A stretch of DNA of 64,000 nt. Source: a bacterium (lineage in GTDB: Bacteria > UBA8248). A program made the translations under genes and the position numbers. The stretch lies in contig OY843592.1 of assembly GCA_963692865.2 (NCBI GenBank), positions 320,001-384,000 on the forward strand. Direction: 5' to 3'. Position 1 is the first letter of the stretch. Every line of letters begins with the position of its first letter. The notes beneath the pieces were generated by a model, which saw only the letters and a program-made list of their open reading frames with translations, did no database searches and was not told the DNA's origin. Below, piece after piece: positions 3,164-61,803 of this stretch.

Positions 3164-3544
3164 GTTCTTGCGCTTTCATCGGTCGCGTTAAACCCTCTTT
3201 CATCGGGGCAGTAATCCCCCCCACCCTCCCTTGTCGGACTTATTGAAAAACCCCTCGTCGGGTAGAAGGGCCTTGCTTTTTCTTGCCCCCCTGACAAGGG
3301 GGGTAAGGGGGGTTGCTCTGGTAGTGACAGCCCCTCCTCGGGGCTGTCACTACAACAATCATGGGGTCTTCGTAGGGGCGGCCCCCCGTGGCCGCCCGTA
3401 TCGGATATGTCCATCCCCTTGGTTACGCTTCACAGGGACAGGCACGGGGTCCTGTCCCTACAAATCCTCTATTTGCAGGACCCCATGCCGACTTTTCCAC
3501 ACCCCCCGGGATGCCTTCTCGTCCGGCTTGCTTCCCCGGTCGCT

Positions 3545-13105: not shown

Positions 13106-13873
13106 TTACCTGCCCCGCCAGACGGGCTTTCTCTTCTCGCGGAAGGCGAGGATGCCCTCCCTGGAATCCTCGGTGTGCAGGATGCGGTCCGCCACGTCGC
13201 GCGACATGTAGACCCTGTCGCGGTAGCCCAGGTCCTCGCCCCGGCGCGCCGCCTCCTTGATGGCGCAGACCGCCATGGGCGCGGCTTCGAGGATTTCGTG
13301 CGCATAGCGCACAGCCGTTGCGAGAAGCTCCTCGTGCGGCACCACCTCGGTGGCGATTCCCAGGCGAAGGCATTCCTCGGCGGGGATGAACTTGCCGCGC
13401 ATCAGGTAGCTCATCGCTTGCGTCCAGGGAATCGCGTGCGCGCACATGGCCGGGCCGCTGACCGAGGATATCCCCCGGAGCACCTGCGGCCAGCCCATGG
13501 AACCGCGTTCTGAAAAAATGAGGATGTCCGAGTTCAGCGCGAAGCCCGCCCCCTGGGCCAGGCAGGGGCCGTTAATGGCGCAGATGATCGGCTTGTAGAG
13601 ATAGCGGAGATAAAGATAAAGCTCGTCGTTCGACATCACCTGCGCGTCGCTCTCGGGCATCTTCTCCACGATGTCCTTGCCCGAGCAGAAAACGTCCCCC
13701 GCCGCCGTGATGATGGCCACCCAGACGTCCGGGTTGTGCTTGATGTCGGCGTAGGCGTCCTGCACCTCCTTGCGCATGGCGTAGTTGATGGCGTTTTTCT
13801 TCTCGGGCCGGTTGAGAGTCAGGTACGCGACGTGGTTCTTCACTTCATACGTGGTTGCTTCTCGATTCGCCAT
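13106..13873 (-). CDS. Enoyl-CoA hydratase/isomerase family protein
   Basis: LNRPEKKNAI, FCSGKD, KPIICAING, EDSREGILAFREKRKP. Confidence 0.92.
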   Translation of the reverse strand: MANREATTYEVKNHVAYLTLNRPEKKNAINYAMRKEVQDAYADIKHNPDVWVAIITAAGDVFCSGKDIVEKMPESDAQVMSNDELYLYLRYLYKPIICAINGPCLAQGAGFALNSDILIFSERGSMGWPQVLRGISSVSGPAMCAHAIPWTQAMSYLMRGKFIPAEECLRLGIATEVVPHEELLATAVRYAHEILEAAPMAVCAIKEAARRGEDLGYRDRVYMSRDVADRILHTEDSREGILAFREKRKPVWRGR

Positions 13874-14152
13874 GGCCGGGCTTCCTTTTCTGAAAGATGC
13901 GGGAGCGGCGCGGGCCGCTCCATGAAATCATCGTCGGGTCGAAGACGGCCATTGTAGCGAAAACCGCCCGAGCGCGCTCCCGCCCGCGTAAATTCGCAGA
14001 CTGTGCGCTTGAGCGGCCAGCCCCGGCCCCGTCGGCCCTCCTCGAAGCGGGGGCAGCCGATCAAGACCCCTCCCGGAGGGCTGTTGCCCCCCCCCGACAA
14101 GGGGTAACAGCGACGCCCCCCGCCAAGGAGTTAAAAAAGGCCCCCCTGGCAA

Positions 14153-14699
14153 GGGGATGTTGAAAAAGTCCTTCTTGGGGGACATCGCCTTTGCGGGAAG
14201 GCCGCTTTCGCGCGAACCCCCTCGTCGGAATCAACCCCCCTACCCCCCCTTGTCGGGGCTGTTGAAAAACACCTGATTTCGCGATTCGGCGAATGCAGCC
14301 GACCGGGAAGGGAGGGTTCGACGGTTTTGCTCGTCATTCCGGTGTCGGAGCCGACCGCGGAGGGAGGGTTCGACGGAATCCAGAGCCGATGTGAATTTCG
14401 AACCGCAGGACGACCATGAAAAACAATCATGCGAAAAGACGAATTCAAAAGCAAAGTCCCTGGATTCCGGCATGCGCCGGAATGACGGCGTGTAATCTCG
14501 ATTGTAGGGGCCGCATATCATGCGGCCCGTTGCCGGAGAGGCGAAAAAGGCCGGGCCGCATGATATGTCAGACATATATGTCTGACCTGCGGCGGGATTA
14601 CCGACTGACCTGCAAGGACTTTTTCAACAACCCCTTGTCAGGGGGGTACAAGAATGCGATGCGCTCCCGCGGGGCAGAGGGGGGTTTTTCAACAGCCCC
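14153..14699. mobile_element. Outer MITE-like element with TIRs, flanked by GGCAA/GACAA
   Basis: GGGGATGTTGAAAAA ... TTTTTCAACAGCCCC; near-duplicated 5-mer in a CCCCCTGACAAGGGGG-type target. Confidence 0.72.
14255..14634. mobile_element. Inner MITE-like element nested in the outer one, TTGTC target duplication
   Basis: TTGTC[GGGGCTGTTGAAAAA ... TTTTTCAACAACCCC]TTGTC; cargo of REP palindromes. Confidence 0.82.
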
Positions 14700-14845
14700 G
14701 ACAAGGGGGGTTGGGGGGTTCAAGGCCGAAACAGGCATCTCCCGGGAGGGGGAGGCATGGGCGCGTAAATTTCCTTGACGATAAACTTGTGAGAAACTCC
14801 CCCCATCGTTCAAAGCGCGTCCACCGAACCTACAGGAGAAGCCAC

Positions 14846-58240: not shown

Positions 58241-58563
58241 TGGGTTGTTGAAAAACCCCTCTCCGCCTCATCCTGAGTAGCGGCGAAGCCGCGTATCGAA
58301 GGCACGAACCCCCTCGTCGGAATCAACCCCCCTACCCCCCCTTGTCAGGGGTCAAACGCGAGTGAGGAACGAGCGTTTGCAGAAGCCATTGATGAGAAAC
58401 ACATCGGTCCGCAATTTCTCGCTCATCGCTCGAAATTGACCCCTGACAAGGGGGGTAGGGGGGGTTGGTTTTTAAGCCGACTAGGGGTGTAAAGGTGGGT
58501 GGTTTTCCAGTCGAGAAGGGGCGTCCCCTCTCCCCCTTGAAAAGGGGCTTTTTCAACAGCCCC
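58241..58563. mobile_element. TIR-bounded element carrying an uninterrupted family C REP doublet (58324-58467)
   Basis: TGGGTTGTTGAAAAA ... TTTTTCAACAGCCCC; internal CCCCCTACCCCCCCTTGTCAGGGG ... CCCCTGACAAGGGGGGTAGGGGG. Confidence 0.78.
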
Positions 58564-61307: not shown

Positions 61308-61489
61308 GGGGCTGTTGAAAAAGTCCTGATGAACGAATGTTTCACCTGACCGGGGAGGAACGGTTTTTGTAGGGGCCGCATATCATGCGGCCCGCCTTGT
61401 GGAGGCGAAAATCAGGGTCGCATGATATGTCAGACATATATGTCTGACCTACAAACAAATTGTCTCTCTCCGGCTTTTTCAACAACCCC
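61308..61489. mobile_element. MITE-like element with TTGTC target duplication
   Basis: TTGTC[GGGGCTGTTGAAAAA ... TTTTTCAACAACCCC]TTGTC. Confidence 0.83.
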
Positions 61490-61601: not shown

Positions 61602-61803
61602 GGGCCTGTTGAAAAAGCCCGATGCGGCGCAATCCCCCTCCTCGTCCTGTGCAACCCACCGTTTCGCCTCACCCTGAGTAGCGGCGAAGCCGCGTATCGA
61701 AGGGCGAAATTAGCGCCCGCCGGAGAGATGCGCCCTCCATCCTTCGATACGCCGCCTCCGGCGGCTGCGCAGGATGAGGCAAAGGGGGTTTTTCAACAGC
61801 CCC
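61602..61803. mobile_element. MITE-like element with GACAA target duplication
   Basis: GACAA[GGGCCTGTTGAAAAA ... TTTTTCAACAGCCCC]GACAA; cargo is a CCTCA(C/T)CCTG REP doublet. Confidence 0.83.

Follow-up and report, generated by a model that had tools for sequence, protein, structure and literature searches.

Nested gene-less insertion elements in a UBA8248 bacterium are probably moved by an IS1182-type transposase into the GC-rich palindromes that they carry

How do two short insertion elements without genes come to lie one inside the other, and what moves them? The question is raised by positions 14153-14699 of a 64,000-nucleotide stretch of DNA (hereafter the window: contig OY843592.1, positions 320,001-384,000, assembly GCA_963692865.2, Bacteria; UBA8248). 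A first-pass annotation, made from the letters alone, had described here an inner and an outer MITE (a miniature transposable element with inverted repeats), and had proposed a self-nesting family that is specific for a repetitive extragenic palindrome (REP) and carries that palindrome as cargo. The window lies on the main contig (C1, 3.94 Mb) of an assembly of 8 contigs and 4.15 Mb, with a completeness of 97.4% and a bin contamination of 6.69%; positions without a contig prefix are those of the window. All seven small contigs (C2-C8, 17.8-50.5 kb) are ~97-98% identical variants of C1 stretches and represent a second strain within the bin, so that repeat counts for the whole assembly include ~0.2 Mb twice. 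The answer that we regard as very probable is that an IS1182-type transposase, whose gene lies elsewhere in the genome, moves these gene-less MITEs, that they prefer GC-rich palindromes which they carry themselves, and that they hence nest within one another.

The coordinates, terminal inverted repeats and flanks described for the two elements were borne out by the sequence. The inner element begins with GGGGCTGTTGAAAAA and ends with TTTTTCAACAACCCC between exact TTGTC copies, while the outer element begins with GGGGATGTTGAAAAA (one mismatch) and ends with TTTTTCAACAGCCCC, its flanks GGCAA and GACAA agreeing at 4/5 positions (Table 1). The strongest inverted pairings run crosswise, joining the outer left to the inner right end (33 nt, 94%) and the inner left to the outer right end (49 nt, 84%), because the flanks are the two arms of one palindrome family. 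Direct 5-bp flanks arise from the nested parse only; an interleaved parse yields reverse-complement flanks. The junction recurs, as had been noticed, at 61308 (TTGTC/GGGGCTG), 61602 (GACAA/GGGCCTG), 40443, 6379 and, in degenerate form, near 3236, and the interiors do differ, being mosaics of several palindrome families. The site that had been read as intact holds both arms of the palindrome, at 58334-58352 (CCCCCCCTTGTCAGGGG) and 58443-58460 (CCCCTGACAAGGGGGG). Further copies of the inner element lie at C1:2896573-2896930 (90.6% identity), C1:3069296-3069652 and C1:3806036-3806345, with a different flank each time.

To define the ends, the motif GGGGYTGTTGAAAAA was counted with up to two mismatches: it occurs 27 times in the window, where 0.12 were expected and none of 100 shuffles reached 27. 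Genome-wide, 806 ends were found at up to one mismatch and 1073 at up to two (540 left, 533 right). The spacing between neighbouring left and right ends is mostly 100-600 bp, and clusters of ends less than 600 bp apart cover 116.9 kb, or 3.0% of C1. Critically, 63 of the 367 C1 left ends with a right end 60-700 bp away are flanked by the identical 5-mer on both sides, compared with 0-2 of 367 in displaced controls, and duplication lengths of 3, 4, 6, 7, 8 and 9 gave 11, 21, 3, 0, 1 and 0 matches in the same set. The target duplication is therefore exactly 5 bp, as had been proposed. The pairs with exact duplications are 79-510 bp long, and the inner element (C1:334255-334634) is among them. 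Since the duplicated 5-mers include some that occur once (CATGG, CCATT, AAAAC), the duplication signal does not come from the palindromes alone, and these same cases speak against specificity for one site.

The elements have the properties expected of MITEs. They are small and numerous, and neither tblastn nor blastn found transposase sequence in them, two fragments excepted; they share terminal inverted repeats, with position weights at the ends that agree with those of the insertion sequence (IS) described below; and their duplication has the same length, 5 bp, as that of both copies of this IS and of 17/39 IS copies in related organisms. Ends fall in coding-like open reading frames (ORFs) in 16.4% of cases, against a C1 coverage by such ORFs of 77.5% in a rough gene model that filters on codon-position G+C. 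The proposed intergenic location thus stands as a strong bias. This filter replaced a test for long open frames, which is weakened by the high G+C: at 200 codons, 37/63 restored sites lay inside such frames, against 89% of random sites.

The sequences into which the elements insert fall into at least four families, which share a layout of a C-run, five bases and then a G-run or GGTC. Family A, CACTCCCCCC TTGAG GGTCGGGCTTCC, is one arm of a long hairpin (42 exact empty sites, 77 with up to one mismatch); family B, CCCTACCCCCCC TTGTC AGGGGGGTA, is usually an inverted doublet ~70 nt apart (20 and 37); family C is CAAACGCTCCT TTCTC AGTCGCGTTTG (8 and 13); and family D is CGATTCCTCCC TCATC GGTCGGAATCG (5 and 31). 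Among 1023 C1 ends, 103 have an A junction (TTGAG/CTCAA), 62 a B junction (TTGTC/GACAA), 78 a C or D junction and 51 a fifth type, giving 294 recognised junctions. When the 63 sites were restored by removing the element, 36.5% showed complementarity at six or more of eight flanking positions, compared with 3.6% of 5000 random sites. Target choice is thus a preference for GC-rich palindrome centres of at least four families, not specificity for one site: of the proposed site specificity the preference for palindromes survives and the single target family does not, and about half of the 1023 C1 ends are flanked by other sequence.

Nor is the REP label borne out in its strict sense. The B family is, as REP/REPIN sequences are, a high-copy extragenic palindrome that often forms inverted doublets (40 doublets among the 100 B arms listed). 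However, no match to the Y1 transposase domain of REP-associated tyrosine transposases (RAYTs; PF01797) was found in the 97.4%-complete genome, in a search whose control was positive in 6/14 named genomes, and the short arms fold no better than shuffles. B doublets can also enclose a C-type palindrome, CAAACGCGAGT GAGGA ACGAGCGTTTG, as at 58324-58467 and C1:195660-195990, so that the palindrome families are themselves nested in one another. A B-like arm at 14084-14105 (CCCCCCCCC GACAA GGGG) is followed by a spacer resembling that of the usual TTGTC (left) arm, as if the 5-nt centre had been inverted. The fifth junction type, family E (e.g. at 2950-2969, C1:1167487 and C1:1464927), is a half palindrome related to GGGCCGCATATCATGCGGCCC, which is found inside many MITEs; it flanks both sides in only 6 left-right pairs, which show no pattern and no duplication outside the flank. 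At C1:~2,149,700-2,150,900 a unit with a MITE end preceded by GTGCAGGGGCCG-CATAC stands in four tandem copies, ~360 bp apart. Re-use of junctions, in which the GGGG of an end would remake the C-run/5-mer/G-run layout, was rejected as a major route: a right end and a left end 5 nt apart occur once, and 4 or 6 nt apart three times.

The search for an autonomous element paired every two ends that lie 700-4000 bp from one another. Two 1514-bp elements with exact duplications were recovered, C1:1499149-1500662 (TTGAG/TTGAG) and C1:1724374-1725887 (CTCAA/CTCAA), both outside the window and 100% identical to one another. Each holds one ORF of 480 amino acids, enclosed by 19-bp inverted ends that match perfectly, GGGGCTGTTGAAAAACCCC. 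On the IS1182 model NF033551 the product reaches 345.5 bits (cut-off 270; 345.9 bits for both copies in a search of the whole genome), and it matches DUF772 (PF05598, 1.2e-17), DDE_Tnp_1 (PF01609, 3.7e-10) and DDE_Tnp_1_6 (PF13751, 2.6e-15), the DDE assignment resting on these domain matches. Model score, DUF772 and DDE domains, and a single ORF within inverted repeats all place the element in the IS1182 family, whose members measure ~1.3-2 kb. The MITEs share with it the terminal 15-19 bp only, that is GGGGYTGTTGAAAAA extended by about GCCC. The only other traces of the transposase are two ~380-nt fragments (84% nucleotide identity, residues 163-290), and neither tblastn nor blastn found a homologue of the 480-residue protein in the window, as the first-pass annotation had supposed. 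Its view that the family is non-autonomous and of DDE type is likewise supported by this IS, and from the shared ends and duplication length we infer that the 480-residue transposase probably moves the MITEs. The MITE ends may also resemble those of IS6/IS26, a kinship against which the 5-bp duplication argues. Tn3-family transposases (PF01526) gave no match in this genome, with a positive control.

Relatives of the transposase are encoded at 44 loci in other species, most of them with 76-82% identity and in six chromosomes of metagenome-assembled genomes. Both ends could be located at 39 of these loci, and the end type was identical in 39/39; an exact 5-bp duplication was present in 17/39 and one with a single mismatch in a further 2/39, and a C-run or G-run adjoins the 5-mer in 36/39. 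An IS1182-family element of 60% identity, carried by a Bradyrhizobium plasmid, has ends GGGGTCGTTGAAAAA and a CGCGT duplication, and lies inside another transposase gene. These shared ends and duplications indicate that the ends and the 5-bp stagger are properties of an IS1182 clade.

If the palindromes are cargo, as had been proposed, their empty copies should lie between MITE ends. Empty A-D sites have a median distance of 70-145 nt to the nearest end, compared with 3186 nt for random positions, and 25-50% of them stand between a left and a right end no more than 500 nt away, compared with 2.6% of random positions. In a search of 21 genomes of the same and other genera, the nine that contain the B 16-mer are exactly the nine that contain the MITE end; the 16-mer has 30 exact copies in the genome studied here and 403 in G012, while four genomes of the same genus and every genome outside it yielded none. 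Within the genus, exact ends number 413 in our genome (G000), 338 in G011, 218 in G012, 184 in G005, 177 in G003, 136 in G002, 74 in G008, 39 in G006 and 31 in G004, and none in G001, G007, G009 and G010; other genera have 0-2, and a control with the reversed motif gave 0 in every genome. Same-genus genomes with no ends measure 3.0-3.7 Mb, and the nine with 31-413 ends 3.7-4.4 Mb. In G012, 12 B doublets that lack a nearby exact end were inspected: within ~130 nt, degenerate ends were present on both sides in 5, on one side in 5 and on neither in 2. Taken together, the proximity, the bracketing, the co-occurrence and the degenerate ends indicate that the palindromes are largely the MITEs' own cores.

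Nesting extends beyond the locus itself. Genome-wide, 108 pairs of ends have 5-mers with at most one mismatch (65 exact), against 10 in the displaced control, and among the pairs consistent with a duplication three are nested, with duplications at both levels, and none cross; 14153-14699 is one of the three, and the others are given in Table 1. The self-nesting that had been proposed is thus seen elsewhere in the chromosome. In the related genomes G012 and G002, outer-type elements consist of the left end, ~87 nt and a B doublet, and the arm CCCCCCC TTGTC AGGGGGG is unbroken at the very place that the inner element occupies in the window. In our genome, other elements have independently hit this arm of the same subfamily at C1:3829715 and C1:1039568. 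Critically, C1:2896508-2896930, inserted in an A site and flanked left and right by TTGAG, matches 14255-14699 colinearly and with near-identity, in the order inner left end, inner right end, TTGTC, B half, outer right end. On the simplest reading, this copy would be the product of a transposase that used the inner left and outer right ends of a similar nest. By such alternative use of ends, palindrome halves would become cargo and interiors would become mosaic.

The composite is not an assembly chimera, an objection that the first-pass annotation had itself raised. A contig of the sister strain (C5, ~97% identical) holds the same composite with the same flanks, and contigs of the public runs X21, X22 and X23 show no difference over 13600-14254 and 14617-14710, so that the outer left, inner right and outer right junctions are spanned; the inner left junction, 14254/14255, is bridged by none of the public pieces listed. 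A contig of run X1 that lacks 14255-14638 was dropped as a candidate empty site of the inner element, its shorter side measuring 20 letters at a depth of 10.6; it is probably a relative's copy of the palindrome. Short-read assemblies break exactly at element ends, and elements differ between closely related strains. Between the two strains of the assembly, the indels separating C2-C8 from C1 comprise complex replacements, a 56-bp indel between direct copies of an end, and, within a single intergenic region, a pair of different MITEs that stand at neighbouring sites. The 56-bp difference (C1:1185777 and C4:8093) lies between direct MITE left ends, in the order end, 40 nt, A arm, TTGAG, end, and is explained either by a nested insertion or by loss of the sequence separating the two ends.

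Both elements lie in a larger mosaic block of 767 bp (Table 1), which is missing in nine genomes of the same genus, where a short conserved spacer alone separates the flanking genes. The 10-bp direct repeat CGCGTAAATT that bounds the block is single and slightly diverged at the orthologous spacer of nine same-genus genomes, and in run X1 one contig passes straight from 13984 to 14762 (10 letters shared by the two sides; side 255). Outside the sister-strain contig, the outermost ~95 nt and ~40 nt of the block have no second copy in the genome, and the block can therefore be assigned to no element. A sponge-metagenome run holds a ~95% relative of the flanks. Within the inner element, the interval 14416-14517 has a summed contig depth of 12,000-109,000 in public sponge and related metagenome runs, compared with 20-50 on the flanks; across the organisms of these samples, the module must be present in extreme abundance.

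Table 1. Coordinates of the nested elements, their target sites and related features (positions of the window unless a contig is named).
Feature	Position	Strand	Details
Inner MITE	14255-14634	+	380 bp, 15-bp terminal inverted repeats, without transposase gene
TTGTC, left target duplication copy of inner element	14250-14254	.	
TTGTC, right target duplication copy of inner element	14635-14639	.	
Outer MITE	14153-14699	+	547 bp with inner element, 162 bp without; carries left arm of B doublet and spacer
GGCAA, left flank of outer element, decayed GACAA copy	14148-14152	.	context CCCCCCT-GGCAA matches B right arm CCCCCCT-GACAA
GACAA, right flank of outer element	14700-14704	.	followed by GGGGGGTTGGGGGG (B right arm)
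B-type palindrome arm (CCCCCCC/TTGTC/...) split by inner element	14241-14262	+	
Mosaic block enclosing both elements	13995-14761	.	767 bp
CGCGTAAATT, left copy of direct repeat bounding the block	13985-13994	.	10 bp
CGCGTAAATT, right copy of direct repeat bounding the block	14762-14771	.	10 bp
Intact B doublet, both arms empty, C-type palindrome inside	58324-58467	.	within MITE with ends at 58241 and 58563
MITE in left arm of a B doublet	61308-61489	+	182 bp; exact TTGTC duplication; C1:381308-381489
MITE in right arm of the same B doublet	61602-61803	+	202 bp; exact GACAA duplication; C1:381602-381803
Nest, outer element	C1:195622-196036		CATTT/CATTT
Nest, inner element of the above	C1:195776-195955		TCATC/TCCTC
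Nest, outer element	C1:712098-712589		GATTG/GATTG
Nest, inner element of the above	C1:712308-712517		TCCTC/TCCTC
Decayed IS1182 transposase gene fragments	C1:414456-414833 and C2:17150-17526		both strains

Established here are the ends, the duplication length, the transposase family, the target bias, the cargo, the nesting and one remobilised hybrid. In the mechanism that would unite them, the transposase binds a left and a right end wherever the two are oriented towards each other and cuts the target with a 5-bp stagger, whose repair would leave the duplicated 5-mer. Since many MITEs have such palindromes at their core, insertion of a new copy into an older one is frequent. In the case of 14153-14699, the outer element would have entered the right arm of a B palindrome (GACAA), and the 380-bp inner element would then have entered the left arm that the outer element carried (TTGTC). 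Once nested, any inward-facing pair of ends could move jointly and take palindrome halves along, which would give mosaic interiors.

Several observations weigh against this account. At the locus, the outer element is flanked by an imperfect duplication (GGCAA/GACAA), no copy of this exact element in unbroken form was found in the genome, and the outer-type elements of relatives hold a whole B doublet where that in the window holds a truncated one. Genome-wide, 83% of left ends lack a partner with an exact duplication, and many neighbouring ends are flanked by different palindrome families; most copies would therefore be decayed or old, recombined or remobilised, with a history that can no longer be read. 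Clean filled and empty MITE alleles, which the first-pass annotation had hoped to see in sister strains, were not found among the indels between C2-C8 and C1. Concerning the target, 527/1023 ends are flanked by neither a pyrimidine-run nor a GACY class, and 51/1023 abut the fifth family (GGGGCCG-CATAC) without a recognisable duplication. The immediate flanks of the A site (CCCCCC TTGAG GGTCGG) are poorly complementary (3-5/8), and lone B arms fold at -4.2 and -4.9 kcal/mol (z -1.1 and -0.25), no better than shuffles; it is equally possible that the transposase recognises the shape of the DNA or the letters of the C-run/5-mer/G-run.

Three other explanations were weighed. The locus might be no nest at all, having been formed by homologous recombination between dispersed copies as two interleaved or recombined units, 14153-14634 and 14255-14699. 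This would fit the crosswise pairing of the ends, the presence of the second unit in one piece at C1:2896508-2896930 and the chimeric flanks that are common across the genome, and hybrid direct repeats made by recombination between IS copies have been described (Tobes and Pareja, PMC1525189). However, direct 5-bp flanks at both levels (TTGTC/TTGTC exact, GGCAA/GACAA 4/5) follow from the nested parse only, the duplication-consistent pairs of the genome are nested three times and crossing never, the B arm is unbroken in relatives at the position of the inner element, and the order of the C1:2896508 copy, with the inner right end followed by TTGTC and a B half, is what a nest would be expected to give; we consider recombination improbable as the origin of the locus. 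Still less probable, and to our mind very remote, is a spread in the manner of bacterial interspersed mosaic elements (BIMEs), by recombination or by an unrelated enzyme such as a RAYT or a Tn3-type transposase, with the IS1182 element merely sharing the motif. The mosaic interiors would suit such a history, and ends starting with GGGG together with a 5-bp duplication are a signature of the Tn3 family too. Tn3-family ends, though, measure 38 bp. Against such a spread stand the lack of matches to PF01797 and PF01526 in a 97%-complete genome, with positive controls, the IS1182 element with identical 19-bp ends, 5-bp duplication and target type both here and at the 39 loci of relatives, and the duplication of 5-mers that occur once, which is not an outcome of recombination.

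The third explanation concerns the cargo: the palindromes could be an independent and older REP-like family, the resemblance to cargo arising because both build up in the same permissive places between genes. In G012 the B 16-mer does outnumber exact MITE ends (403 copies to 218), 32 of the 100 arms listed lie within 350 nt of an exact end, and 2 of the 12 doublets inspected had no ends. Yet the other 10 have a degenerate end nearby, 16-mer and MITE end occur in exactly the same 9/21 genomes, about 47% of the empty sites of our own genome lie between a left and a right end, and the C1:2896508 hybrid has a palindrome half that moved between MITE ends. We think an independent origin unlikely, if less so than the other two alternatives, and retain the reading in which an IS1182-type transposase inserts the MITEs into palindromes that they carry.

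Hairpin targeting by IS1182 elements is already known and in print. IS1272/TnSha1, a member of this family, targets inverted-repeat or hairpin sites and deletes the hairpin without a duplication (PMC5678879, PMC4923244); each of the two papers refers to Siguier et al. 2015 on the family's palindrome targeting, and Figure 13 (pathway c) of PMC5678879 proposes duplication of the loop alone as a possibility. The elements described here resemble IS1272/TnSha1 in transposase family (NCBIfam, Pfam) and in their preference for hairpins. They differ in that both arms of the palindrome persist at the junctions alongside a duplication of exactly 5 bp, where IS1272 deletes or replaces the hairpin without duplication, and in that the non-autonomous derivatives exceed the IS ~250 to 1 and carry the target themselves. 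Palindromes are also targeted by REP-specific IS, namely IS1397 and ISKpn1 (IS3 family), IS621, ISPpu9 and ISPpu10 (IS110 family) and ISRm22; PMC1525189 names the families IS3, IS110, IS4, IS256 and IS5, IS1182 being absent from its main text. Those IS likewise insert into abundant extragenic palindromes, on or close to their symmetry axis, in some cases with hybrid flanks from recombination (PMC1525189). Their targets, in contrast, are proteobacterial REPs of the RAYT type, whereas the present genome gave no RAYT match and its palindromes are for the most part MITE cores. The Tn3-derived MITEs called TIMEs offer a further parallel, as non-autonomous elements that generate mosaic non-autonomous transposons (PMC4133298); they differ from the present family, which has an IS1182 partner, ends of 15-19 bp and no Tn3 transposase match in its own genome. 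A literature search returned nothing relevant on nested MITEs in bacteria, or on MITEs in Nitrospinota or sponge symbionts. The behaviour is thus palindrome targeting of a known kind that is here unusually abundant; particular to this genome are the duplication of the 5-bp centre with the palindrome retained, the scale of the family, the target that it carries itself and the documented hybrid copy.

More tentatively, and as something possible rather than probable, the family may be autocatalytic, its preferred landing palindrome being the core of its own commonest members. One or two targets would be gained with each transposition, and recombination among nested ends would give rise to new mobile mosaics. 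Such a cycle would account for the lineage-specific burst (0 ends in four genomes of the genus against 31-413 in nine), for the strict co-occurrence of palindrome and element, and for the heavy occupancy of recognisable sites on C1, where 62 ends have B junctions against 34 empty B sites, and 103 have A junctions against 72 empty A sites. The element would be building its own safe intergenic habitat, and not exploiting a pre-existing REP family. The genome offers a natural example of a hairpin-seeking DDE transposon building a large, self-nesting and mostly intergenic repeat landscape in an uncultured bacterium, with the autonomous element, ~500 non-autonomous derivatives, empty and filled targets, nests and a remobilised hybrid all in hand. 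With its 480-residue enzyme, 19-bp ends and 16-19-bp targets, it also provides a defined substrate for the question of whether IS1182 transposases recognise shape or sequence.

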